Positions 1,998 through 51,140 of a stretch of 64,000 bases of DNA are shown one piece after another. The stretch spans positions 65 to 64,064 of the forward strand of contig CAYFQP010000034.1 of the NCBI GenBank assembly GCA_964345375.1, read 5' to 3'. Both the position numbers and the translations under genes were made by a program. Below the pieces are notes generated by a model. It did not search any database. It worked only from the letters and a program-made list of their open reading frames with translations, and had not been told where the DNA came from. Position 1 is the stretch's first letter, and every line of letters starts with the position of its first letter. This DNA is from an uncultured Gammaproteobacteria bacterium (GTDB lineage Bacteria > Patescibacteriota > Microgenomatia > CAYFQP01).

Positions 1998-3253
1998 AAA
2001 TAAGAATTTCTTTAAAAAGGGTTAGGGTTATTATTCTAGTCTTGGCTTTAATCATTCTCGCTGGTGGTTCAGGTTACTGGTTGGGTCAGCGAGAAGTTAA
2101 GGTTAGTCTGAATAGATATCGACCCCAGGTAGAGATTAAGCGCCAAGTTCCAGTTGGTAAGGAAAATCTTGATTTTTCTCTTTTCTGGGAAGTCTGGGAT
2201 CGGCTCGAAGCTAGTTATCTTGACAAAGGCGCGATTGATTATTCGAAAATGATTGAAGGTGCTATCTCAGGGATGGTCGCTTCCTTAGGTGATCCTTATA
2301 CTGTTTTCCTGCCACCTGAAGAGAATAAAAAGTCAAAAGATGATTTGGCTGGCAGTTTTGAGGGTGTTGGCATGCAGCTTGGTTTTAAGGATTCTAAAGT
2401 GGTTGTCGTTGCTCCTTTAAAAGGAACCCCAGCTGATAAAGCCGGCGTCAAAGCTGGAGATATTATCAGCCACGTTAAAGATGGGGAAAAGGGGATTGAT
2501 CAGGACATCGATAGTATGCCCTTGCCTGAGGTGGTGACGATTATTCGGGGACCAAGGGGAATGCCAATCACGATTACCTTTCTTCGAGAAGGAATCGAAG
2601 AACCTTTAGAGATTACCATTGTCCGGGGAACAATCATTATTCCCAGTGTTGAAGTTGATTTTATTGAAAAAGACAACAAAAAAGTCGCTCATTTGAAATT
2701 AAGTCGTTTTGGTGACCGGACTGATCAGGAATGGCAGGCAGCAATTAATCAGATTGTTGGTGAAAAGACAAAGACTAATTTTAAAGGCGTGGTTTTAGAC
2801 TTGAGAAATAATCCTGGCGGCTACCTTCAGGGAGCGGTCTATATTGCCAGTGAGTTTTTAAGTCAAGGGGTAGTCGTTCAACAAGAAAAAGGTGGGAATG
2901 GTGGCACCGAGACGTTTTCCGTTAATCGCCAGGGAAGATTGACAGACATTCCCTTAATAGTTTTGGTTAACCAGGGCTCAGCTTCGGCTTCAGAGATTGT
3001 GGCTGGTGCTCTTTTTGAAAGAGAAAGAGCCGAGTTAGTTGGTGAGAAAACTTTTGGCAAGGGGACGATTCAAGAAGCTGAAGACTTAAGCGCTGGTTCA
3101 GGCTTACATATTACCATTGCTCGTTGGCTTTTGCCTTCTGGAGAGAACATTGATGGTCAAGGAATTAGTCCAGACTATGAAGTAGCCATGGACGAGACTG
3201 ACCAGACAAAAGACCCTCAACTTGACAAAGCAATCGAATTGTTGTCAAAATAG
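1994..3253 (+). CDS. ctpA: S41 family C-terminal processing peptidase (CtpA-like) with N-terminal TM and PDZ domain
   Basis: Motifs GVGMQLG (PDZ), NPGGYLQGAVYIASEF and GSASASEIVAGAL (S41 catalytic Ser region), KGTIQE. Confidence 0.85.
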   Translation: MKIRISLKRVRVIILVLALIILAGGSGYWLGQREVKVSLNRYRPQVEIKRQVPVGKENLDFSLFWEVWDRLEASYLDKGAIDYSKMIEGAISGMVASLGDPYTVFLPPEENKKSKDDLAGSFEGVGMQLGFKDSKVVVVAPLKGTPADKAGVKAGDIISHVKDGEKGIDQDIDSMPLPEVVTIIRGPRGMPITITFLREGIEEPLEITIVRGTIIIPSVEVDFIEKDNKKVAHLKLSRFGDRTDQEWQAAINQIVGEKTKTNFKGVVLDLRNNPGGYLQGAVYIASEFLSQGVVVQQEKGGNGGTETFSVNRQGRLTDIPLIVLVNQGSASASEIVAGALFERERAELVGEKTFGKGTIQEAEDLSAGSGLHITIARWLLPSGENIDGQGISPDYEVAMDETDQTKDPQLDKAIELLSK

Positions 3254-3257
3254 CCAG

Positions 3258-4427
3258 ATGCCTAAAATTAAACATTATCTTATTGGTTTCGCGATTGGAG
3301 TAGTCATCATTGTTTCTGTTCTTGGTGGGGCTATCTCTGATCGACTTTTTGGTTATCGAATTTTAGATAAATTTTTCCCTCGAACTGAAGAAGGTTTTCA
3401 TCTTCCAACTGAAACTCAGCGGATTCTTCGGGAAGAGTCAGTCGTTATTGAAGTAGCTGAGAACGTTTCACCTTCAGTGGTCACCATTGGTATTAGTAAA
3501 ACCCAAAGAGTCCTTGAATTTCCTACTTTACCTGGTTTTGAATCTTTTTTTGGCTTGCCTGAGTCTGGAACAAGAGAAGAAGAGATTGAGCAAGATATTG
3601 CTACTGGTTTTATCATCACTGCTGATGGCTTGATTGTGACCAACAAACACGTTGTTGCTGACAGCCAGGCAAGGTATCGGGTGATTGCTCAGGATGATAA
3701 GACGTATGAGGTTGAGAAAATCTACCGTGATCCAGCTAATGATATCGCTATTCTGAAGATTAACGCTTCTGGTTTACCACCAGTGGAGTTAGGCGATTCT
3801 TCTAATTTAAAAGTGGGTCAGTTTGTCATTGCCATTGGCACGGCCTTAGGAGAATTTCGCCACACCGTGACGACCGGAGTTATTTCAGGCTTGGGGAGAG
3901 GCATTACGGCTGGTTCACCCTTAGAGGGATATGTTGAAGAATTAGATAATGTTATCCAGACTGATGCGGCCATTAATCCTGGCAACTCGGGTGGACCTTT
4001 ACTCAATTCGGCTGGTCAGGTAATTGGTATTAATGTGGCGGTGGCTGCAGCCGGAGAGAATATTGGTTTTGCTTTACCGATTAACATTGTTAAAGAGTCA
4101 ATCAATAATTTTAACCAAACAGGCCAATTCAGCCGACCGTTTCTGGGTATTCGTTACCGGATGATTTCTCGAGAAGCAGCAATAATGAACGAAATACCAG
4201 AAGGTGCTTACGTCGCCGAAGTGATTACTGATTCACCGGCTGAGAGAGCCGGCATTCAAGCTGGTGACATTATTACCCACCTTGATAATCAGAGATTAGC
4301 TGAAGTTGAAGGTGGTTTAGCGGTTGTTATCTCCAAAAAGAAAGTCGGTGACTCAATTAGTATTACCATCTGGCGAGACGGAGAAGAAATCAAAACGAGT
4401 GCGGTTTTAACCGAGATGGAAGGTTAA
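3258..4427 (+). CDS. htrA: HtrA/DegP family trypsin-like serine protease with C-terminal PDZ
   Basis: TNKHVV (His), DIAILKI (Asp), GNSGGPLLNSAGQVIGIN (Ser) catalytic motifs; N-terminal TM; PDZ region ITDSPAERAGIQAGDII. Start placed at MPKIKHYLIG to avoid overlap with ctpA. Confidence 0.85.
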   Translation: MPKIKHYLIGFAIGVVIIVSVLGGAISDRLFGYRILDKFFPRTEEGFHLPTETQRILREESVVIEVAENVSPSVVTIGISKTQRVLEFPTLPGFESFFGLPESGTREEEIEQDIATGFIITADGLIVTNKHVVADSQARYRVIAQDDKTYEVEKIYRDPANDIAILKINASGLPPVELGDSSNLKVGQFVIAIGTALGEFRHTVTTGVISGLGRGITAGSPLEGYVEELDNVIQTDAAINPGNSGGPLLNSAGQVIGINVAVAAAGENIGFALPINIVKESINNFNQTGQFSRPFLGIRYRMISREAAIMNEIPEGAYVAEVITDSPAERAGIQAGDIITHLDNQRLAEVEGGLAVVISKKKVGDSISITIWRDGEEIKTSAVLTEMEG

Positions 4428-5122
4428 TTACGGCCTTGAAGTAGAGAAACAATCTTTTTGAGATCGCCACCGAGAACAGCATCTAAATTCTTCCAAGATT
4501 TATTTAGTCGGTGATCTGTTACCCGGTTTTGAGGAAAATTATAAGTCCTTATCTTTTCAGCTCGCATCCCTCGGCCAATGGCGGAGCGATAGTTTTGGAT
4601 TTCTTCTTCCCTTTCTTCTTCCTCTTTTTGGAAGAGTTTTGATCTTAAAATTTCTAAGGCAATTTGCCGATTTTGTTCTTGACTTCTTTCGGCTTGGGAG
4701 GTGACTGTAATTCCAGAAGGGTTGTGTTTTAATCTCACTGCGGTGGCTACTTTATTAACAAATTGACCACCAGGGCCTGAAGAGCGGAAAGTTTGGAGTT
4801 CTAAATCCTGGGGATTAATCTTAATCTTTGTTTCTGGGATTTCAGGTAAGACCGCCACGGTTGCGGTTGAGGTGTGGATTCGACCATAACGCTCGGTTTT
4901 CGGCACGCGTTGAACTCGGTGAACACCAGCTTCGGATTTTAGTTTTTTAAAAGCATCAGGGCCAGTGATTTTAATCACGCCTTCGTCAATTTCGCTGACC
5001 TGCCATTTTTGAGAATTGGCAAAGCGGGTATACATTCTTAATAAATCATCAGCCCAGATTTTAGCTTCATCACCACCAGCTCCTGGCCGAATCTCTAAGA
5101 TGACTTTATTGGAGTCTTTCAT
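4424..5122 (-). CDS. prfA: class I peptide chain release factor, RF1-type (PKT = PxT motif, GGQ), lacking N-terminal domain 1
   Basis: RVQRVPKTERYGRIHTSTATVAVLPE (PxT decoding motif), RSSGPGGQFVNK (GGQ), RTYNFPQNRVTDHR. Only 232 aa; the start ATG directly follows the rpmE stop (TAAATG), so there is no room for domain 1. Confidence 0.75.
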   Translation of the reverse strand: MKDSNKVILEIRPGAGGDEAKIWADDLLRMYTRFANSQKWQVSEIDEGVIKITGPDAFKKLKSEAGVHRVQRVPKTERYGRIHTSTATVAVLPEIPETKIKINPQDLELQTFRSSGPGGQFVNKVATAVRLKHNPSGITVTSQAERSQEQNRQIALEILRSKLFQKEEEEREEEIQNYRSAIGRGMRAEKIRTYNFPQNRVTDHRLNKSWKNLDAVLGGDLKKIVSLLQGRN

Positions 5123-5482
5123 TTATTCTTTCTCTTTTCTAGCCTTTTTCTGAGGAGCGGTTTTCTTCTTCTCCTTAGTTAACATTTCCTTAAGAGTCTT
5201 GGGTCTGGCTTTTTCGGCTTTCTTTTCTTGAAGTTTCTTCAATCTTCTTCTTTCTTTTTTCTTGACATATTTTTTACCAGCCACTTTTTCTCTTTTAATT
5301 TGGAACTTTTCTACCTGACCAGCTTCATCAACATACTTCATTTCGCCAGTAAAAAAAGGATGACAATGAGAGCAGATTTGAACTTTAATTTCTGGTTCAG
5401 TTGAGCCGACTGTAAAAGTATGGCCACAAGAGCAAGTGACCTTAGCTTCTGGATACCACTGAGGATGAGTTTTAGTTTTCAT
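5123..5482 (-). CDS. rpmE: 50S ribosomal protein L31 with ~50-aa Lys/Glu-rich C-terminal extension
   Basis: MKTKTHPQWYPEAKVTCSCGH...CSHCHPFFTG L31 zinc-ribbon core (~65 aa) followed by a KKYVKKKERRRLKK... tail. Confidence 0.85.
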   Translation of the reverse strand: MKTKTHPQWYPEAKVTCSCGHTFTVGSTEPEIKVQICSHCHPFFTGEMKYVDEAGQVEKFQIKREKVAGKKYVKKKERRRLKKLQEKKAEKARPKTLKEMLTKEKKKTAPQKKARKEKE

Positions 5483-14437: not shown

Positions 14438-15181
14438 ATGGTTCCCGTGATTTTTAGTTTAGGTCCAATTACTATTTCTCCCTTAACTATCTTGATCCCA
14501 GTCGCTTTTCTCTTTGCCTCCTTTTTTCTTTGGCAGTCTCTTAAGGAAGATTATCCAGGAGAAGAGGTTATCAGTTTAACAATCTATTTAACCCTAGTTT
14601 TTTTAATCGGCGCCAGAATAATCCATATTCTTTTATTTTTCCAAGAATTTAGATTTTCTTTAATCAAATGGCTCTTAATTAACCATTATCCTGGTTTCTC
14701 TTTTCTCGGTGGTTTTTTAGCCTCATCTGCCTTTCTCATTTTCTGGGCTAAGAAAAAAAATTGGGATTTTTGGGAATTAGCTGAAGTCATTGTTCCAGCC
14801 TGGTTTTTAGTTGCTTTTTTAGTCGGGATTGGTCTTTATCTAGTCTCAGCTAAAATAATTTTCTTAGCTGAAAGTTTTTTAGCTTTTCTTCTCTTTTTTC
14901 TTAGTCATTATCTGAAAAGAAAATATCGTTCCTTTACCTGGTATAAAAGTGGCAAGCTAGGTTTTGTTGGTTGTTTGACGACCTCCTTTTATATGATTGG
15001 GAAGTTTTTACTTGAAATTTATAATCATTCTGGTTTATACTGGGAGGGTATTTTTCTCTGGGGATTGGCAATTGCTTGTTGGGTTTTTATTTATTTAAGA
15101 TCAGGGAGAAAACCTAGAGAAGATTTAGGAAAAATTTCTTTGCTAAGAAAGAGAAGAGGTTATGAAGAAACCGAGTATTAA
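14438..15181 (+). CDS. lgt: prolipoprotein diacylglyceryl transferase-like membrane protein
   Basis: N-terminus PVIFSLGPITISPL matches the Lgt signature (E. coli PVIFSIGPVAL); LIGARIIHILLF resembles the Lgt GARLGHV region; multi-TM. The canonical GRxGNFxNxE motif is not evident, so the call is tentative. Confidence 0.5.
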   Translation: MVPVIFSLGPITISPLTILIPVAFLFASFFLWQSLKEDYPGEEVISLTIYLTLVFLIGARIIHILLFFQEFRFSLIKWLLINHYPGFSFLGGFLASSAFLIFWAKKKNWDFWELAEVIVPAWFLVAFLVGIGLYLVSAKIIFLAESFLAFLLFFLSHYLKRKYRSFTWYKSGKLGFVGCLTTSFYMIGKFLLEIYNHSGLYWEGIFLWGLAIACWVFIYLRSGRKPREDLGKISLLRKRRGYEETEY

Positions 15182-22122: not shown

Positions 22123-22886
22123 GTAAACGTCAAAAATTTATTCTTTCCTCAGTCAGCCTTTCGGCCGGGTTAATGCTCATTCAAATGGCTGGTTTCCAAT
22201 GGCGTTATTCAGCCATTGCTCTTCTTTCTTTATTAGCCGCTGGTTTTACTCTTTGGTCTTTGAGAGAGGCCTTAGCCGGAGTTCGCTATCTAACAACAAT
22301 TATCTTACCGGCTCTTTTTACGGCTGGAGTAGGCCTTTTCTATTTTCTTTTACCAAGCACCTGGTTAGCTGTTTTACCAATTGCCTTGCTTTATGGTTTT
22401 GGTTTTTATGCTCTTTTATTAACTGAAAATATTTTTTCAGTCTCCGCAATTAGAACAATTCAGCTTTTCCGGGCGGCTCAAGCAGTCGGTTTTCTTTTAA
22501 CTTTATTGACTGCCTTTTTTCTCTTTGATACGGTTTATTCCTTTAAGTTCTATCCTTGGATTAATGCTTTTTTTGTCTTTATTATTGCCTTACCTCTTTA
22601 TTTTCAAGGATTATGGAGTATTGAGCTTGAAGAAAAAATTAGTCGTCGGTCAGTTGTTTTTTCTCTGGTTTTAGCCTTAGTTTCAGCTGAATTAGCCCTC
22701 ATAATTTCTTTCATGCCTTTAACCATTGCCATGAGTTCTTTGTTTTTAACAACAACAGTCTATGTTGGTCTTGGTCTTTCTCAGGCCCATTTTCAAGCTC
22801 GACTCTTTCGGAGAACGATTTATGAATATTTGGCTGTCGGCGCAATTGTTCTGCTGGTGATGATCTTAACTGTTAATTGGGGATAG
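22119..22886 (+). CDS. hypothetical polytopic membrane protein
   Basis: 255 aa, about 7 hydrophobic segments; ATGA overlap with yebC. Confidence 0.5.
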   Translation: MSKRQKFILSSVSLSAGLMLIQMAGFQWRYSAIALLSLLAAGFTLWSLREALAGVRYLTTIILPALFTAGVGLFYFLLPSTWLAVLPIALLYGFGFYALLLTENIFSVSAIRTIQLFRAAQAVGFLLTLLTAFFLFDTVYSFKFYPWINAFFVFIIALPLYFQGLWSIELEEKISRRSVVFSLVLALVSAELALIISFMPLTIAMSSLFLTTTVYVGLGLSQAHFQARLFRRTIYEYLAVGAIVLLVMILTVNWG

Positions 22887-23271
22887 GGGAGTCATAAAAA
22901 TTATACATTCTTGTCTGAATTCCGAATTTTTCCAATAAAAATCATCTTTGGTGTTTAATCGAACAAGAAAAACTTGCTCAAGAAACAAAAAAAATTTTGA
23001 CAGACATCTCAACTAGGGGAGAGAGGTAAGAGAAAATTATCAATGATTAAATTTTAACCACTAATATCCTATAATAAATGCAACATTTTCATGAAAATCA
23101 TAGGCTATTTTTCACAAGACGGCAAATAATAGAGAAGACTGCTAATTAATTTAACTCTTCAGACACCCAACTAAGAACCTAAAACCATAGAGTTAACTTC
23201 CGTAGGGAGCTTCACTCCTCTCCACTTTAGCCTTGAAAATAAAGAAACGTGCCTAAATATTGCCCCAAATT

Positions 23272-23291
23272 TTTGATATAGTTTGATATAG
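23272..23291. repeat. tandem direct repeat TTTGATATAG x2 immediately upstream of a DnaA box
   Basis: Direct reading of the sequence. Confidence 0.6.
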
Positions 23292-23294
23292 TTC

Positions 23295-23303
23295 TGTGGA
23301 TAA
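23295..23303. promoter_or_regulatory. perfect DnaA box (TGTGGATAA = TTATCCACA reverse complement) within a 1.2 kb AT-rich non-coding region
   Basis: Exact 9-mer consensus; a second 8/9 match TTATCCAAA lies at 23700-23708. Confidence 0.35.
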
Positions 23304-24048
23304 GTCTAGAGGGAGAGAAGAAGACCGTTTGTTTAGGAAACAAATAATCATAGGAAGAACAAGAATAAAATAAAGACAGAATGTTGAAGAGAAGGAGCTT
23401 TCTCTATCACCCCCTTAAAAGAAAAACAGAGGCACCTGTTAAGAGGGAGTCTTGTTCTTACATTGTCGCACAAAAAAACCTTTGCGACTTTAAATCTCCT
23501 CCCTTTCGGAGAAGGTTCTAAAGATGAAGATAGGAATTATTTTCAAAAAGTTTTTCTTAATTTTTGTCTGGCTCGATTACTATTTATTTAATTAACTCTC
23601 TATTTTTTGATTTTTCTATTTTCTTTTATTTTTATAAAAACCCGAAAATTAGTTATTTCAAACTATTACTTTTTATAACTCCTCTTCCCCGGTCGGTTTT
23701 TATCCAAATTTTTTCCGCAAGACAAAAATTTAAAAAATCTTGATCAAGGATGATTAGAGACATTGCTTATCATTTAAAAAACGGTTCTAGGGCTTCTAAG
23801 AAACCCTTAGCCTCAGACTCAAGGCTAAAAAGAAATCTTAAAATCGCCTTCTCAGCCACTTTTAGACTTTTCCTTTTAAAATGTTTTCTTTTTTCTTTTT
23901 CAGAAACTTCATTAATTTTTTCAAAATCCTCTGGTTCTATTTTTCTTAGATTTTTATTTTAAAATCATTTTTAAAAATATTTATTAAGATAATAAAAGAC
24001 AATTTATTATTAAAAAATATTAGCCACTCTCTCAATGTCGCACAATAT

Positions 24049-24077
24049 TTGACAAATCATTTCCTTTGGAGTAAACT
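24049..24077 (+). promoter_or_regulatory. sigma70-like promoter (TTGACA - 17 nt - TAAACT) for the recombinase gene
   Basis: Consensus -35, 17-nt spacer and a 4/6 -10, eight nt before the ATG at 24085; overlaps the repeated motif TGTCGCACAA. Confidence 0.4.
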
Positions 24078-24084
24078 TTGATTA

Positions 24085-25023
24085 ATGCCCAAAACAACTT
24101 CTTTGTCAGAATTAAATCAACAATTTCTTGAATATTTAGAGATTGAACGCAATTGTTCTCCCTTGACGATCAGAAATTACAAACATTATCTCGATCGCTT
24201 TCTGAACTTTGCCTCCCCTACTCCAGAAAAACTATCTCCAAAAAATATTAATTTAGAGTTGATTAGAAAGTATCGTCTCTTTCTTTCAAGATATTCAGAC
24301 GATAAAGGGAAAACCCTTTCTCGAAAAACCCAGGCCTATCATGTTGTTGCTCTTCGTTCTTTTCTTCGTTGGCTAGTAAAGAATGATTACGAAACTTTAG
24401 CTCCAGAAAAAATTGATTTACCCAAACAAGAAACTCACTCTTTAAAATTCCTTAATGCTGAACAGATAGAAAGATTGCTTTCTCAACCAAATGTTTCTAA
24501 ACCTTTGGGATTAAGAAATAAGGCAATTTTGGAAGTTTTATTTTCAACTGGTTTGCGAGTTTCAGAGCTAGTGAATCTTAATCGTGATCAAATAAATCTT
24601 TCTCGGAGAGAGTTTGGGGTTATCGGCAAGGGTGGTCGGTCAAGAGTGGTTTTTCTTTCTGAAAGAGCAGTTAGATGGTTAAAACGATATCTTGATTCTC
24701 GCGATGACCAATACAAACCCTTGTTTATCAGAATCGCTGGTTCAGTTGACCCAACCACCCCAGGAGAAAAAATGCGATTGTCAGCCCGCTCAATTCAAAG
24801 GATTGTTGAAAAATATGCCAAAAAGGCAAAATTGCCAATTAAAATCACTCCTCATGGTCTCCGCCACACTTTTGCCACTGATTTATTAATGGCTGGAGCT
24901 GATATCCGAAGTGTTCAAGAACTCTTAGGTCATAAAAACATCCAAACTACTCAAGTCTATACCCATGTGACTGATAAAAAATTACGTGAAGTCCACGAAA
25001 AATATCACGGTAAGGGAAAATAA
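24085..25023 (+). CDS. tyrosine site-specific recombinase, XerC/XerD-like
   Basis: N-terminal SAM-like core-binding domain; catalytic region GLRVSEL, HGLRHTFATDLLMAGADIRSVQELLGHKNIQTTQVYTHV (R..HxxR..Y). Confidence 0.8.
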   Translation: MPKTTSLSELNQQFLEYLEIERNCSPLTIRNYKHYLDRFLNFASPTPEKLSPKNINLELIRKYRLFLSRYSDDKGKTLSRKTQAYHVVALRSFLRWLVKNDYETLAPEKIDLPKQETHSLKFLNAEQIERLLSQPNVSKPLGLRNKAILEVLFSTGLRVSELVNLNRDQINLSRREFGVIGKGGRSRVVFLSERAVRWLKRYLDSRDDQYKPLFIRIAGSVDPTTPGEKMRLSARSIQRIVEKYAKKAKLPIKITPHGLRHTFATDLLMAGADIRSVQELLGHKNIQTTQVYTHVTDKKLREVHEKYHGKGK

Positions 25024-45084: not shown

Positions 45085-45792
45085 ATGGCTGATTTAAAAA
45101 AAATCTTGTTTAAATATCATCAACTCTTTCTTCCTTTTATCTTTATCATCTCTTTGTTAATTTTTTGGTTTTTCCTGATGCCCAGGTTTAACCAGATAAA
45201 GAAAGTTTATTATTCAAATCAAAAAGAAAGAGAAAGGATTAGGAGCCTCCAAGTAAAAATCAGTGATTTAGAAACCCTTAATGAATACGAACTAACGGAA
45301 AAATCAGAGATTCTTCTTCTGGCTCTGCCCTCAGAGAAAAATGGGGTGGCGATGATGGGAGCGGTGAGCAATTTAGTTGAGGAGAATGGATTGGTAATCG
45401 AGTCAATTAGTGTTTCTCCTGGTGAGATAGCCACTGGCTCGGCTGAAGAATCGGCTGAAGAATCGGCCATGGATTTTTTACCTTTTAGATTAACGATTAC
45501 TGGTGAGATTACCCAATTTTTGAATTTTTTGGAAGCTGCTAGCCAGACTCTTCCGTTAATGGATGTAGAAATGAGGAATTTTGACATCACTGGTGAGCAG
45601 TCAACCTCTGATTGTTTAATTAAGTTTTATTATACTGGTTTACCGACAACGCTTGGAAAAATTGAGACGCCTGTGCCTAAACTATCTAGCCAAGAGGAAT
45701 TATTTCTTGATGAGCTCCAAAAGTTTAATGCCTATCAATTAGAACCGTTTGAGCCCAGTGTCGGCGGTCGAGCTAACCCCTTTACTTTTTAG
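45085..45792 (+). CDS. pilO: PilO-like bitopic membrane protein
   Basis: N-terminal TM plus coiled coil, then a periplasmic-type domain; position after pilN. Confidence 0.5.
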   Translation: MADLKKILFKYHQLFLPFIFIISLLIFWFFLMPRFNQIKKVYYSNQKERERIRSLQVKISDLETLNEYELTEKSEILLLALPSEKNGVAMMGAVSNLVEENGLVIESISVSPGEIATGSAEESAEESAMDFLPFRLTITGEITQFLNFLEAASQTLPLMDVEMRNFDITGEQSTSDCLIKFYYTGLPTTLGKIETPVPKLSSQEELFLDELQKFNAYQLEPFEPSVGGRANPFTF

Positions 45793-46036
45793 ATTCTTTG
45801 CTTTCAGATTCTTCGAGGATTAATTGGACTTTTTTCTTTTCGGTCAGTCCCCGAGCTTTGAGAAGGGTTCTGATTGCCTTAATTACTTTTCCTTGTCGAC
45901 CAATAACCATGCCCATGTCTTCTTTGGCCACTTTCAGGTTGAGGTTAATTACCCCATTTTTTTCTTCTCCTTCAATCTCAACTGCTTGGGGTTGAGAAAC
46001 AAGAGACTTAATAATGAATTCAAGAAGCTCTTTCAT
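45782..46036 (-). CDS. KH-domain RNA-binding protein (YlqC/UPF0109 family)
   Basis: VIGRQGKVIKAIRTLL KH GxxG motif; adjacent to rpsP as in many bacteria. Confidence 0.75.
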   Translation of the reverse strand: MKELLEFIIKSLVSQPQAVEIEGEEKNGVINLNLKVAKEDMGMVIGRQGKVIKAIRTLLKARGLTEKKKVQLILEESESKESKK

Positions 46037-46049
46037 TCCTTTTCTAATT

Positions 46050-46280
46050 CTATTTTTTTTCTAAAAGCTTAAGAACAGATTTGGTTGGTTGGGCCCCTTT
46101 TTTTCTCCAAGCCTGATACTCGTCCATCTTGATTTTGAGAGTCGGTGGTTTAGTCCTTGGATTATAGGAGCCAAGAATGGCCACATTCTTACTGTCTCTT
46201 TTTGTCTTTGCTTCAGAGACAACAATTCGGTAAGAGACGTCTCCTTTTCTACCAACTTTAGCTAATCTTATCTTAAGCAT
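46050..46280 (-). CDS. rpsP: 30S ribosomal protein S16
   Basis: MLKIRLAKVGRKGDVSYRIVV typical S16 N-terminus. Confidence 0.9.
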   Translation of the reverse strand: MLKIRLAKVGRKGDVSYRIVVSEAKTKRDSKNVAILGSYNPRTKPPTLKIKMDEYQAWRKKGAQPTKSVLKLLEKK

Positions 46281-46959
46281 AAATTTTTAGACCCTTTTTA
46301 GCGGCCTGTTGTTCTGCTTCTTGCTTTGATTTGCCTTTTCCCTGGGTAATTTTCTTTTTTCCCAGGAAAACACCGACGATGAATATTTTATCATGGTCTG
46401 GCCCAAAACCTCTAATCAATCGATAAACTGGGGTTAGTTTTTCTTTTTCTTGAGCTTTTTCTTGGAAAAGACTCTTATAATCTTTAAGGCTCTTTTGGTG
46501 ACTAATCTTAGTTATCCTTTTTCCTAGAAAAGAATCAATAAACTTTTTTGTTTTTTCTAGGCCCTGGTCAAGATAAATGGCGCCGATTAGAGCCTCAAAG
46601 GCATTGGCGAGGAGGCTTTTGTTTTTCCTTCCTCCGCCCTCTTCTTCACCCTTGCTTAAAAGAAGATATTCACCAAGCTGAAATTGATTGGCTGCTTGAG
46701 CCAGAGAGTCAGTTTTAACGATTTGAGAACGAAAAGTGGTTAAAATGCCCTCGTTTAATTCTGGGAAGAGAGTGTATATTTTTTCGGAAATAATAAATTC
46801 TAAGATAGCGTCGCCGAGAAATTCTAGTCTTTCGTTTGAGGGAAGCTTTTCTTTGGGGTGTTCATTGAGATAGGAACGGTGAATGAGAGCCTTTTTAAGG
46901 AGGTTTTTATCCTTAAAATCAATCTCGATCTTTTTTTCTAGGGATTGGGTTTTAATCAT
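46273..46959 (-). CDS. rnc: ribonuclease III
   Basis: ERLEFLGDAIL signature, C-terminal dsRBD. Confidence 0.9.
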   Translation of the reverse strand: MIKTQSLEKKIEIDFKDKNLLKKALIHRSYLNEHPKEKLPSNERLEFLGDAILEFIISEKIYTLFPELNEGILTTFRSQIVKTDSLAQAANQFQLGEYLLLSKGEEEGGGRKNKSLLANAFEALIGAIYLDQGLEKTKKFIDSFLGKRITKISHQKSLKDYKSLFQEKAQEKEKLTPVYRLIRGFGPDHDKIFIVGVFLGKKKITQGKGKSKQEAEQQAAKKGLKIYA

Positions 46960-47189
46960 TCTGCTTCGGAAACAAGGTTAATAATGTCATTAACTGTTTT
47001 AATCTTTTTAATTTCTTCATCAGAAATCTCGATTGAAAATTCTTGATTGATTTCCATAATAATGTCCGCGATTTCTAAGAATTCAGCATTAAAATCTTCA
47101 ACCAGGTCTGAGTCTGGCTCAATTTTTTCCAGAGGCGTGCCTAATTTATTGGCAATAATTTCTTTAATCTTTTGAATTTTTCCTTCCAT
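46956..47189 (-). CDS. acyl carrier protein homolog lacking the phosphopantetheine-attachment Ser (Phe at the DSL position)
   Basis: Aligns ungapped with E. coli AcpP: DLVEDFNAEFLEIADIIMEINQEF against [20 protein letters not shown]. Start set at MEGKIQKIKEI; the ORF-track N-terminal extension overlaps nusB. Confidence 0.6.
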   Translation of the reverse strand: MEGKIQKIKEIIANKLGTPLEKIEPDSDLVEDFNAEFLEIADIIMEINQEFSIEISDEEIKKIKTVNDIINLVSEAE

Positions 47190-47544
47190 TTTCTTTCTCC
47201 TTAACCACACTACCGAGAACACCGTTGACAAAGGCTGGCGATGATTCGCTTCCGAATTCTTTAGCCAGCTCGATTGCCTCATCAATGATTACCTTAATTG
47301 GCTCTTTCTTTTTAATTTTCAGCTCAAAAATAGCCAGTCTCAAGATCGCCAAATCAAGTCGATTGATTTGTTCAATTGGCCAGAGAGGAGCTCCTTTTTT
47401 GATGATTTTGTCAGTCTTTTCTAAACTATTAATGACCTCTCGAGCCAGCTGATCATTGATCCTCTGCTTTTCAAAGCTCCAGCTGAATAAGGCTTTAAGC
47501 GCCTTTTGTCTTTTTAGATGGCGAGGGTCGCTTGCCTTTTTCAT
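47164..47544 (-). CDS. nusB: transcription antitermination factor NusB
   Basis: RHLKRQKALKALFSWSF N-terminus matching the NusB ARRxARexAvQALYqw pattern. Confidence 0.85.
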   Translation of the reverse strand: MKKASDPRHLKRQKALKALFSWSFEKQRINDQLAREVINSLEKTDKIIKKGAPLWPIEQINRLDLAILRLAIFELKIKKKEPIKVIIDEAIELAKEFGSESSPAFVNGVLGSVVKEKENGRKNSKD

Positions 47545-47734
47545 CTTTCTTTTTTTCTTTGATCTCGATTACCTTTTTACCTTTATAATAGCCACAATGG
47601 GGGCAAACCTGATGAGACTGTTTTGGCTGACCACAATTAGGACAAGGGTAAAGAGAAGAAGGCTTAATTTTTATTGCCGCTCGTCTCTTTCCCTTACGAT
47701 GAGTTGATATTCTTCTTTTAGGTAAAGCGCCCAT
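47495..47734 (-). CDS. rpmF: 50S ribosomal protein L32 with Lys-rich C-terminal extension (overlaps nusB start by 50 nt)
   Basis: MGALPKRRISTHRKGKRR...CPNCGQPKQSHQVCPHCGYYKGKKV. Confidence 0.8.
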   Translation of the reverse strand: MGALPKRRISTHRKGKRRAAIKIKPSSLYPCPNCGQPKQSHQVCPHCGYYKGKKVIEIKEKKKDEKGKRPSPSKKTKGA

Positions 47735-47779: not shown

Positions 47780-49798
47780 TTAATTTGGCTCAACAGATTT
47801 TTCTTTATAATCTCTAAGTGCCTTTTTTAAAAGAGGAGATTGGGAGAGTTTGGTGATCAATTCTTCAGCGACTTGGCGACTTTTCTGGATAAGATCAAGA
47901 TCAGTGAAAGAGGCTACTCTTAGGTCAGGAAAACCGTGTTGCCTCGTGCCGTAGATTTCACCTGGGCCCCGGAGCTTTAAATCAAGCTCAGCTAAATCCA
48001 TGCCTAAGTAAACTCTCTCCATTGCCTTTAATCTCTGAAAAGCTTTTCCCTTGGTTATTTCTGTGAATAAAAGGCAAAAAGATTTTTTTTGACCGCGACC
48101 AACCCGACCCCGGAGTTGATGAAGCTGGGCTAAGCCGAATCTCTCTGCTCCTTCAATCATCATAATCGTTGCTTGAGGAATATCAATGCCCACTTCCACC
48201 ACTGGAGTGGAAACAAGAAGATCAAGTTTACCTTGCCGGAATTGATCAATGATTTTGTCTTTTTCTTTGACTTTCATCCGGCCATGGAGAAGACCGAGAT
48301 TAAGATTTTTAAAGACTTTTTTAGACAATCTCTTATATTCAACCGTCGCCGCCTTAACTGACTGAAGAGATTCAGATTCCTCGATTAAAGGACAGATGAT
48401 AAAAGCTTGTTCATCAGTGCCTTTGATTCTTTTGCTTATCCATTGATAGGCGGCTTCTCGTTTGCTTGGCGGCACGACCCAGGTTTTGACCTTTTTCCTG
48501 CCTGGAGGCATTTGATCGATGATTGAGAGATCAAGGTCACCATAAAGAGTTAAGGCGATTGTTCGAGGGATTGGAGTGGCGGTCATGGTTAAGATGTGAG
48601 GCGCTTTGCCTCTTTTAATCAGCCTGGCTCTTTGTTCAACGCCAAAGCGATGCTGTTCGTCAATAATCGCCAAACCAAGTTTGGCAAAATGAGCCCGGCG
48701 ATGAATTAGAGCATGGGTGCCGACAAGAAGATCAAATTGGTTTTTAGTTTTTTTTCTGCCTCCGGTCAGGAGTTCAACTTTTACTCCAAGAGAAGAAAGC
48801 ATCTGTTTTAAAGTAATAAAGTGCTGGTTAGCTAAAATAGCGGTCGGTGCCATGACGGCTGTTTGGAAGCCATTAAGAAAAGCAACATAGGCCGCAACAG
48901 CAGCAACCACGGTTTTTCCTGAACCAACATCACCTTCGAGAAGACGGTTCATTGGTTTATTTTTAGAGAGATCTTTTAAGATTTCCTTAACACACCTTTT
49001 TTGGGCCTTGGTTAATTCAAAAGGAAGAAGACTAAGGAATTCAAGAATCTTTTCTTGATCAACCGAGAACTGATGGGCTAGATTCTTTTTTTGCCATTCT
49101 TTCTTCCTTTTTAGGCCAGCCAGCTGGACAAAAAAGAGTTCGTCAAAAGCGAGTCTTTTTCTGGCTTTTTCTGCCTGAGTTTTATTTTCCGGAAAGTGGA
49201 TCCATTTAATTGCTTGAGCTAAGTCGATTAAATCATTTTTCTTCTTGATTTTATCAGCAAGGAAATCATCAACCTCAGGCAAAACTTGGCCTAATAATGG
49301 TGAGATTCTTGACCGAAGCCATTTAGAGGAAACCCTGGCAGTTTCCGGATAGACAGGTACTAACCTACCCGTGTGGATGGTTGGTTTATCTTCTAATCTT
49401 AAAAATTCATATTGAGGGGAAACCATGACGATTTTCCGGCCAAACCAATCAACTTTACCCGAAAAACTATACTTCTCCCCTATCTTGATGGTTTTGACCA
49501 AAAAGGGCTGATTAAACCAGACAACTTCAATTTCTCCGGATTGATCTTGAATAACTCCTTTCTGGATTTTTTTACCTGACTTAGTATATTCATTTTTCAT
49601 TGAGACAACCTCTCCCCTAATAGTGGCTGTTTCGCCAGGCTGGAGTCTATTGATCGGAGAAATCAGAGTTAGGTCATCATAACGAAAAGGAAAATGATAG
49701 ATTAAATCTTTGACTGTCTTAATCTTTAATTTTTCCAACCTTTTAGCATAAGTTGGACCAACCATGAAAATTTTTGAGGCTGGTGTATCAAGCTTCAT
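47780..49798 (-). CDS. recG: ATP-dependent DNA helicase RecG
   Basis: Wedge domain, helicase motifs (GDVGSGKT, DEQHRFG, QLRGRVGRG). Confidence 0.9.
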   Translation of the reverse strand: MKLDTPASKIFMVGPTYAKRLEKLKIKTVKDLIYHFPFRYDDLTLISPINRLQPGETATIRGEVVSMKNEYTKSGKKIQKGVIQDQSGEIEVVWFNQPFLVKTIKIGEKYSFSGKVDWFGRKIVMVSPQYEFLRLEDKPTIHTGRLVPVYPETARVSSKWLRSRISPLLGQVLPEVDDFLADKIKKKNDLIDLAQAIKWIHFPENKTQAEKARKRLAFDELFFVQLAGLKRKKEWQKKNLAHQFSVDQEKILEFLSLLPFELTKAQKRCVKEILKDLSKNKPMNRLLEGDVGSGKTVVAAVAAYVAFLNGFQTAVMAPTAILANQHFITLKQMLSSLGVKVELLTGGRKKTKNQFDLLVGTHALIHRRAHFAKLGLAIIDEQHRFGVEQRARLIKRGKAPHILTMTATPIPRTIALTLYGDLDLSIIDQMPPGRKKVKTWVVPPSKREAAYQWISKRIKGTDEQAFIICPLIEESESLQSVKAATVEYKRLSKKVFKNLNLGLLHGRMKVKEKDKIIDQFRQGKLDLLVSTPVVEVGIDIPQATIMMIEGAERFGLAQLHQLRGRVGRGQKKSFCLLFTEITKGKAFQRLKAMERVYLGMDLAELDLKLRGPGEIYGTRQHGFPDLRVASFTDLDLIQKSRQVAEELITKLSQSPLLKKALRDYKEKSVEPN

Positions 49799-49946: not shown

Positions 49947-51140
49947 TTAATCCGAGTTAACCCGAATTTTTAGAAATTTCAATCTTCCCACTCTTAATAT
50001 TTCTCCACCTTTTAGATGAACTTTATATTGTGGATCCTTAATAGTCTTTTTGTTTAGTTTTACTGCTCCCTCTTTAATAAGTCGTTTTGCGTTAGCCCTA
50101 GTCATGGGGACGGCATAGTTAACTAATTGTGCAAGCGTATAATCACCGCGACACATTTTCTTGGGGATAGAAGCTGTAGGAATTTTCCTTGGCAATTCTC
50201 TTTTCTGAAATACTTTCTCAAAGTATTTTTGAGCCTCATTAGCTGCTTTTTCTCCATGATAAAGTTTAACCAATTCCCAAGCAAGCTGTTTTTTCAATTT
50301 CATTGGGTTGGTTTTAAGAGACTTTTTATATTCTTCAATCTTTTTTAAAGGGACATTGGTGCACATTTCAGAGTATTCAATAATTAAATCATCAACCATC
50401 GACATCACCTTGCCATAGATATCATTAGGTTTATCGAGAAGATTAATCGTATTACCCGAGGTTTTACTCATCATTTTTCCATCTAAACCAGTAATCATCT
50501 TGGTGGTTAGAACAAACATCTCCTTCTTGTTGTAGATTTTTTGCAAGGTTCTTCCGGCCAGCATGTTAAAGGTTTGGTCACTGCCTCCTACTTGAAGATC
50601 AACGTTCATGGCGACCGCGTCATAGCCTTGAAGTAAAGGATAGAGAAACTCGTGAAGAAAAATTGGTTTTCTATCTTTTAATCTTCTTTGAAACAAGTCT
50701 CTCTCAATCATTTGCTGAACCGTAAAATTTGAAGCTAACTTAATGATTTCAGCAAAATCTAATTTTGAAAGCCACTGAGAGTTGTATTTTATTCTTGCCT
50801 TAGAAAAATCAAGGATTTTAGAAGCTTGTTGGCGATAAGTGACCATGTTTTCTTTGATTTCTTTTAAAGTTAGACTTTTTCTAGCTTTTTCATGGCCTGA
50901 GGGATCACCGCAAAGAGCAGTGAAATCACCAACAAGGAAAATAACTTGATGACCTAGTTCAACTAATTCCTGGAGTTTCATTAAAGGAATGGCATGGCCA
51001 AGATGGAGATTGACTCCAGTTGGATCAATACCTAGATAAAGGCTGATTTTTCTGCCAGAACGAAGAACCTTCTCAAAGGCCTCTTTAGAAGGATAAATCT
51101 TCTCCACTCTTCGGCTCAAAACTTCATCGATTTTGTCCAT
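49947..51140 (-). CDS. tyrS: tyrosyl-tRNA synthetase with C-terminal S4 domain
   Basis: HLGH (HIGH) motif, KMSKTSGN (KMSKS) motif, S4-like C-terminus. Confidence 0.9.
   Translation of the reverse strand: MDKIDEVLSRRVEKIYPSKEAFEKVLRSGRKISLYLGIDPTGVNLHLGHAIPLMKLQELVELGHQVIFLVGDFTALCGDPSGHEKARKSLTLKEIKENMVTYRQQASKILDFSKARIKYNSQWLSKLDFAEIIKLASNFTVQQMIERDLFQRRLKDRKPIFLHEFLYPLLQGYDAVAMNVDLQVGGSDQTFNMLAGRTLQKIYNKKEMFVLTTKMITGLDGKMMSKTSGNTINLLDKPNDIYGKVMSMVDDLIIEYSEMCTNVPLKKIEEYKKSLKTNPMKLKKQLAWELVKLYHGEKAANEAQKYFEKVFQKRELPRKIPTASIPKKMCRGDYTLAQLVNYAVPMTRANAKRLIKEGAVKLNKKTIKDPQYKVHLKGGEILRVGRLKFLKIRVNSD

Follow-up and report, generated by a model that had tools for sequence, protein, structure and literature searches.

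An acyl carrier protein orthologue without its phosphopantetheine serine, encoded between nusB and rnc in a Patescibacteria lineage

The window analysed here, a 64-kb stretch of contig CAYFQP010000034.1 from an uncultured bacterium, encodes on its minus strand (46956..47189) a 77-residue protein with an isoelectric point (pI) of 4.2 that we identify as an in-situ orthologue of AcpP, the acyl carrier protein (ACP), lacking the serine to which phosphopantetheine is attached. Codon 37 of the gene (TTC, 47079..47081, minus strand) specifies Phe, aligned with Ser36 of E. coli AcpP and placed as the first residue of helix II. Very probably the protein is a permanently apo AcpP orthologue that selection has retained in this clade. 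A fuller explanation, in which this acpP descendant is a cofactor-free acidic binding subunit with an accessory role and with NusB as a candidate partner, is in our judgement the better bet, though held with less confidence.

Results

Identity and fold of the ACP-like protein

The ACP-like protein is an AcpP homologue in both sequence and fold. The Pfam profile PF00550 matches it above threshold (5.2e-10, 39.9 bits, cutoff 20.8) and the NCBIfam 'acyl carrier protein' model NF002148 just passes (71.2 bits, cutoff 71), whereas the score against the equivalog model TIGR00517 (60.3 bits) stays under its cutoff of 70.45. BLASTP aligns E. coli AcpP to the protein ungapped over 69 residues with 35% identity. 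In this alignment DFNAEFLE stands opposite the E. coli sequence DLGADSLD, which puts Phe37 at Ser36 and gives Glu-Phe-Leu in place of the Asp-Ser-Leu motif of ACPs. Among proteins of solved structure, Aquifex ACP (2ehs) matches best by sequence (1.6e-19). A word-indexed homologue search with the protein as single query returned only the protein itself.

An AlphaFold2 model built from 149 homologues has a mean predicted local distance difference test score (pLDDT) of 87.4 and contains four helices, at residues 2-16, 37-51, 57-62 and 66-76, with helix II starting exactly at Phe37. Foldseek against the PDB retrieved carrier proteins only, with template modelling (TM) scores of 0.85-0.92 to the ACPs of B. 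subtilis, Thermotoga, Aquifex, Helicobacter and E. coli. The sequence-only reading that preceded this analysis had proposed an ungapped AcpP homologue with Phe at the Ser36 position, and profiles, pairwise alignment and fold all agree with it.

Loss of the serine across the family

Exhaustive phmmer and profile searches retrieved close homologues (56-67% identity, all of 77 aa) and more distant ones (40-47%), which share the motif D-L-N-A-x-x-L-E-I-A-D. The serine is absent in 25 of 171 short ACP matches, and 22 of those 25 belong to this ACP-like family. Its replacements are diverse: Phe in the window protein and P0157; Pro in P0159, P0131, P0166, P0168, P0182 and P0200; Ile in P0161-P0165; Thr in P0067 and P0154-P0156; Val in P0158; Asp in P0034 and P0194; Glu in P0031; and Lys in P0118. 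Family members P0012, P0114 and P0147 have Ser. To avoid selecting on the site itself, metagenome contigs were also scanned at the DNA level for D[LF]NAxx.EI[AT]D, using a degenerate pattern that had NNN for the Ser codon. This yielded 13 true family members, three with Ser (L148, L186 and L202) and ten with Phe, Ile, Pro, Glu or Asp.

Constraint was measured on an alignment of 22 family sequences, non-redundant at 85% identity. Column 37, equivalent to Ser36, has an entropy of 2.85 bits (six Pro, four Ser, four Asp, two Phe, two Glu and others), and column 36, equivalent to Asp35, has 2.43 bits. These two columns are among the most variable of the protein and are the most variable of helix II. 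G17, D32 and E39 are invariant, and L16, L33, N34, A35, I40, A41, D42, T65 and V66 nearly so. Judged from this alignment, the relaxation of constraint is specific to the two residues important for pantetheinylation. Even the Ser-bearing members read E-S, S-S or T-S, so the Asp required by the holo-ACP synthase AcpS is gone there too; the D35N substitution by itself stops AcpS modification of E. coli ACP (bioRxiv 10.1101/2025.01.28.635281).

The codons at the site (Ser TCT/TCC, Phe TTY, Pro CCN, Thr ACC, Ile ATT, Glu GAA, Asp GAT) fit an ancestral TCY with many separate exits; TTY, CCN and ACC are each one step off. On a neighbour-joining tree of RNase III, the Ser-bearing L148 and L202 fall between the window (Phe), L084 (Ile) and L178/L081 (Phe). 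Since the Ser-bearing copies nest among Phe and Ile lineages, the replacements appear to be repeated and independent, and the two Phe lineages separate. With deeper branches counted we estimate roughly eight or more replacement events, an approximate figure drawn from a neighbour-joining tree of a single protein.

Could the family still act as a carrier? The attachment might use another residue or an unusual transferase, or the Ser-bearing orthologues might be functional holo-ACPs and the Ser-less ones recent failures. The presence of Ser (TCT or TCC) in four of the 22 non-redundant members is in line with the latter, but the rest of the evidence makes any such carrier role highly improbable. 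At the N-terminus of helix II and close to it the family conserves neither Ser nor Thr nor Cys, and an alternative attachment residue was rejected on this ground. The serine itself has given way to residues such as Pro, Phe, Ile, Glu, Asp and Lys. The Asp needed by AcpS is lost together with the serine and also without it, the Ser-less lineages are old and diverse rather than recent, and no fab or phosphopantetheinyl transferase gene is present at any of the related loci examined. Sequencing error was likewise rejected as the source of Phe, which recurs in independent samples and contigs.

The earlier statement that the protein cannot carry 4'-phosphopantetheine is thus supported at the level of sequence, by Phe at the attachment site and by the family-wide loss of constraint at Asp35 and Ser36. 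A strain-specific mutation is excluded, as the orthologues keep Ser only in a minority (4/22), and many relatives conserve the open reading frame (ORF) in the same place.

Two observations stand beside these results. P0088, a Ser-containing protein on a 305-kb contig, was left out of the family as its context differs: at its locus (L090:8001-8632, also L091) a second PP-binding gene is adjacent, Translin, QueH and RuvB are encoded on the contig, and fab genes are not nearby. P0097, P0121 and P0138 are short ACP homologues with an otherwise canonical DLGAD-L motif and Ile, Asp or Trp at the Ser position, and Ser-less ACPs may occur in further lineages.

Selection versus decay

The ratio of non-synonymous to synonymous substitution rates (dN/dS), estimated by the Nei-Gojobori method on ungapped orthologue pairs, is 0.17 for the window versus L084, 0.11 for L081 versus L084 and 0.25 for L087 versus L092, rough values as dS is saturated. 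In these pairs dN lies far under dS; pairs with a codon offset (for example the window versus L087) are invalid and were dropped. At L178/L203 the ACP-like protein is 64-67% identical to its counterpart in the window, NusB 71-73%, RNase III 68-70%, S16 69-72% and the KH-domain protein 56-57%; at the more distant L144 the figures are 38% (ACP-like protein), 42% (S16) and 38% (KH-domain protein). By these identities the ACP-like protein diverges at the pace of its bona fide neighbours. Together the codon and protein comparisons indicate that in its carriers the gene is under purifying selection and is not a pseudogene.

When presence was sampled through RNase III rather than through the ACP, the gene was found in one of five relatives, L214, which has Pro at the Ser site. 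It is absent from the other four, L212 (Pacebacteria), L213 (Shapirobacteria), L215 and L216, in which nusB abuts or overlaps rnc directly, the picture of a clean excision. These gene-less relatives keep the recG-rpmF-nusB-rnc-rpsP-KH-pilONM block. The gene-less lineages are dispersed over the RNase III tree, a distribution suggestive of three or more deletions. Given these clean losses in several sister lineages, any function is accessory and not essential.

Such losses are what one would see if the gene were a neutral remnant of lost fatty-acid synthesis, surviving wedged between, and overlapping, essential genes and heading for deletion. The clean absences, their interspersion among carriers on the RNase III tree and the degenerate catalytic site would all fit, as would the copy in L198, in which loop I is partly lost or shortened and the helix III region is affected as well. 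We nevertheless consider a remnant improbable. Neutral decay does not account for the low dN/dS, for a 77-aa length and four-helix fold that persist to ~40% identity, or for a divergence equal to that of S16, KH and NusB at the same loci. Helix II and a number of core positions do not vary, the Asp-Ser site alone being free, and the overlaps with neighbouring genes restrict no more than 26 nt at the start of the gene and 4 nt at its end. The sequence-only reading had offered a decaying remnant and a repurposed ACP fold side by side. A protein that remains under selection is what the data favour, and the remnant view is right to the extent that four of the five relatives sampled through rnc have deleted the gene.

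Synteny and the collapsed acpP cluster

The ACP-like gene belongs to a compact minus-strand run in the order tyrS, recG, rpmF, nusB, ACP-like, rnc, rpsP, KH, whose members were identified by Pfam and NCBIfam profiles. The run begins with tyrS (49947-51140), followed by recG (47780..49798; RecG_wedge, DEAD and Helicase_C domains), which marks the upstream edge of the conserved block here and in relatives. Next come rpmF for ribosomal protein L32 (47495..47734; PF01783, 5.8e-22; TIGR01031) and nusB (47164..47544; 126 aa, PF01029, 1.6e-26; TIGR01951, 99.3 bits). Downstream of the ACP-like gene lie rnc for RNase III (46273..46959; TIGR02191, 259.9 bits), rpsP for ribosomal protein S16 (46050..46280; TIGR00002, 87.6 bits) and a gene for a KhpA-like KH-domain RNA-binding protein (45782..46036; PF13083, 6.5e-20). 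The type IV pilus genes pilM/N/O, on the opposite strand, converge on the run.

The arrangement (tyrS-recG-rpmF-)nusB-ACP-rnc-rpsP-KH followed by pilO/N/M is found at 17 of 17 loci with usable flanks (L081-L089, L092, L141-L203 and L214). As Ser-bearing and Ser-less copies occupy the same block, they are orthologues.

For comparison we used 80 ordinary acpP loci among the matches listed by a scan of genome contigs with the close-family alignment. Within this set rnc lies downstream on the same strand at 33 loci (27 of them within 500 nt), rpmF lies upstream at 28, and both flank acpP at 20. Pfam annotation of the intervening ORFs gives yceD-rpmF-plsX-acpP-rnc in Clostridium algifaecis (L003), rpmF-plsX-fabH-fabD-fabG-acpP-fabF-rnc in an Elusimicrobia metagenome-assembled genome (MAG; L002) and recG...rpmF-plsX-fabD-fabG-acpP in an Omnitrophota MAG (L001). 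The B. subtilis order, which we take to be recG-fapR-plsX-fabD-fabG-acpA-rnc-...-rpsP-khpA, has the same backbone. These comparators support the view, put forward earlier from the window alone, of a collapsed locus: the block would be the rpmF-plsX-fab-acpP-(fabF)-rnc cluster minus plsX and the fab genes, with nusB in their place. nusB is a derived insertion into this old cluster.

At the downstream end of the run, the KH gene and pilO are convergent and their 3' ends overlap by 11 nt (45782-45792), which leaves no space for a terminator; this tail-to-tail layout is kept in all related loci. A promoter and terminator scan found promoter-like sites to be rarer than in shuffled sequences and no informative terminators within the operon.

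Translational coupling and fusion to NusB

The ATG of the ACP-like gene (47189-47187) lies inside nusB, giving an overlap of 26 nt with the end of that gene (stop at 47164). As read from the sequence, an AAGGAG Shine-Dalgarno motif (47197..47202, minus strand) is placed 7 nt 5' of the ATG, within the nusB coding sequence. At the other end the stop codon shares ATGA with the start of rnc (46959). The run also contains overlaps of 50 nt between the end of rpmF and nusB and of 8 nt between the end of rnc and rpsP. The tight coupling to nusB and rnc noticed at the outset is therefore real, and the gene has a Shine-Dalgarno sequence of its own.

On two metagenomic contigs, L198 (~3201-3737) and L141 (1-396), nusB and the ACP-like gene form one continuous in-frame ORF. 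The NusB C-terminus (...EFGGETSPSF[VI]NG.LGKVL) runs directly into ACP helix I (...R[IV].KVIAD.LG...), and the ACP parts match the family profile with 2e-13 and 2.7e-20. L198 and L141 group as sisters on the RNase III tree, yet with just 66% identity between their RNase III sequences the fusion has persisted over substantial divergence. The multi-domain matches of the exhaustive search included no NusB fusions.

NusB is the best candidate partner because of the natural fusion, the conserved translational coupling and the opposite charges of the two proteins (pI 9.8 for NusB and 4.2 for the ACP-like protein). That the partner is indeed NusB or the rRNA machinery is a tentative proposal to which we give a minority share of our confidence. 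The stronger version, in which the ACP fold has been domesticated in a branch of the Candidate Phyla Radiation (CPR) as a pantetheine-free subunit of rRNA transcription and processing that binds NusB, in some cases as its covalently attached C-terminal domain, and perhaps RNase III, is doubtful.

A cofactor-free ACP could instead serve a partner unrelated to its neighbours. Known non-fatty-acid interactors of bacterial and organellar ACP suggest a cysteine desulfurase of Fe-S assembly, an SMC/MukB-type condensin, RelA/SpoT or a lipid-scavenging acyltransferase. Precedent exists in the mitochondrial ACP (mACP) of Plasmodium, which has undergone the Ser to Phe change, binds Isd11-Nfs1 and is essential without pantetheine (PMC8547962). 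The conserved helix II is the generic docking surface of ACPs, and the acpP-rnc linkage is older than the fab loss, so that gene order need not mark the partner. Yet no LYR/Isd11-like, desulfurase, SMC or Rel gene occurs in the conserved block or among the window ORFs scanned, and the sole fusion seen is with NusB. The residue at the Ser site is not conserved and so makes no specific contact, unlike Phe113 of the Plasmodium protein. We regard a partner of this kind as unlikely.

Other features of the window

A release-factor ORF of 232 aa (4424-5122, minus strand) begins at domain 2, matching only positions 97-194 of the PCRF profile. With a PxT-type motif (PKT) and GGQ it is RF1-like without the N-terminal domain 1. 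The gene directly upstream (5123-5482, minus strand) encodes ribosomal protein L31 with a 57-aa Lys-rich C-terminal tail. The region 22886-24085 (1.2 kb) lacks ORFs of more than 70 aa, and its GC content (~0.33) is the lowest in the window. It immediately precedes a XerC/phage-integrase-family gene (24085-25023), and Rfam at gathering threshold gave no match within it. A plus-strand ORF similar to prolipoprotein diacylglyceryl transferase (Lgt; 14438-15181) matches the first 131 of 240 profile positions only and is followed by an overlapping DksA/TraR zinc-finger gene.

Discussion

The window comes from a CPR/Patescibacteria genome, probably of the Microgenomatia. Homologues of its RNase III at 55-59% identity are labelled Patescibacteria group, Pacebacteria, Shapirobacteria and Saccharimonadales. 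Proteins with DUF5656 and DUF5660 are encoded in it alongside information-processing and pilus genes, and its GC content is ~40%. Among the ~50 ORFs scanned in the 64-kb window, which is a fraction of the genome, there are no fab, plsX, acpS or coenzyme A synthesis genes. CPR genomes, including a complete Microgenomates genome, have been described as lacking fatty-acid synthesis (PMC7143001), and ACP synthase is reported to be absent even in fab-bearing Nealsonbacteria (bioRxiv 10.1101/465690). Taken with the structure of the locus, this literature points to loss of type II fatty-acid synthesis (FASII) in the lineage. Our literature search on ACP in CPR, Patescibacteria and Saccharibacteria, on ACP with NusB or RNase III, and on apo or moonlighting ACP found no description of the family. 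One study names no more than an acpP gene, as a putative horizontal transfer into Patescibacteria (PMC12455944).

We propose the following scenario. In a CPR lineage, probably within Microgenomatia, plsX and the fab genes would have been deleted from an ancestral rpmF-plsX-fab-acpP-rnc cluster, leaving acpP in place, and nusB would have come to occupy the former fab position. With Phe at Ser36, and with the Asp35 and Ser36 positions free to vary, established ACP chemistry predicts that the product neither becomes holo-ACP nor carries acyl chains. The four-helix acidic fold and the near-invariant helix II (L-E-I-A-D) have been kept under purifying selection, and the protein is presumably produced from the closely packed operon that its gene shares with nusB and rnc. 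Its most likely role would be that of a cofactor-free acidic protein-binding subunit that uses the old recognition surface of helix II. The basic NusB is the candidate partner, which would connect the protein to rRNA transcription and processing with RNase III; this step draws on the in-frame fusion in two diverged relatives. The sequences themselves show the homology, the fold, the loss of the site and its repeated replacement, purifying selection, synteny, the fusion and the patchy loss. From these we infer that the protein stays unmodified in the cell, that it binds other proteins and that NusB is among them.

Several points weigh against this scenario. The case for the partner is built on gene order and on a single lineage with the fusion. 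Since acpP and rnc were already neighbours in the ancestral cluster, the synteny may partly reflect inertia. The fusion may be an accident that was tolerated where two genes overlap, and translation of the fused ORFs could also start internally. The absence of a phosphopantetheinyl transferase is taken from the CPR literature and not from the genome of this organism. Saturation of dS affects all the dN/dS ratios quoted above, and the gene's absence from four of the five relatives sampled through RNase III limits the importance of its function.

ACP is treated as inseparable from its pantetheine arm. To our knowledge the apicomplexan mitochondrial ACP is the only well-studied exception to this dependence. 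A carrier protein without cofactor is already known from apicomplexan mACP and is now seen in bacteria, for which our literature search found no report. If our reading is right, the cofactor-independent activity of the ACP fold extends to bacteria, where the arm has been lost many times and selection has been kept, and moonlighting interactions can outlast the primary pathway during genome reduction. It would also call for a correction of annotation, since the label 'acyl carrier protein' could be counted wrongly as lipid metabolism in CPR reconstructions. The NusB fusion gives a testable starting point in the search for a so far uncharacterised part of the rRNA synthesis machinery of this major, uncultivated radiation.

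The closest known relative is bacterial AcpP itself. The ACP-like protein shares its length and four-helix fold with E. coli AcpP, B. subtilis AcpA and Aquifex 2ehs (46% identity to the latter), its acidity with E. coli AcpP (pI 4.05) and its chromosomal slot between rpmF and rnc with acpP. It differs in that its family has not kept Ser36 or conserved Asp35. In helix II the family has LEIAD where AcpP has LD(T/I/L/V)VE, and several canonical acidic positions (49, 61) are often Lys in the family. In addition, fab and plsX are not nearby, and nusB is inserted upstream.

The closest functional parallel is the mACP of Plasmodium falciparum (PF3D7_1208300), in which Phe stands in for Ser, FASII and the transferase have been lost, and an essential, pantetheine-free partnership with Isd11-Nfs1 remains; the work describing it detected ACPs without Ser in Apicomplexa and chromerids but nowhere else (PMC8547962). 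The window protein has the same replacement of the conserved Ser by Phe, and in both cases an ACP has been kept after FASII loss, which here is deduced from the locus and the literature. The two differ in setting, as mACP is eukaryotic and organellar whereas the ACP-like family is bacterial and a positional orthologue of acpP. Phe113 of mACP is itself a required contact, whereas the corresponding site is hypervariable in the ACP-like family. mACP is partnered by the LYR protein Isd11, and none is evident among the window ORFs scanned. mACP is essential, whereas the ACP-like gene is dispensable in sister lineages, and its genetic links are to NusB and RNase III rather than to Isd11-Nfs1.

Matches to the ACP-like protein among solved structures also include NDUFAB1 of complex I (8iuf), as well as 7aoi and 7am2, which we take to be mitoribosome assembly intermediates with ACP-LYR modules. 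Mitochondrial ACP uses the ACP fold as a small acidic structural or assembly subunit in complex I and in mitoribosome assembly, as we propose here. The structural interactions of mitochondrial ACP need an acyl-pantetheine arm inserted into an LYR protein; the ACP-like protein lacks the arm, and an LYR partner for it is not evident among the window ORFs scanned. Its possible link to ribosome biogenesis is suggested by gene context and by the NusB fusion. Should this link hold, the family would parallel in bacteria the ACP modules that serve in mitochondrial ribosome assembly, having arrived there by another, cofactor-independent route.

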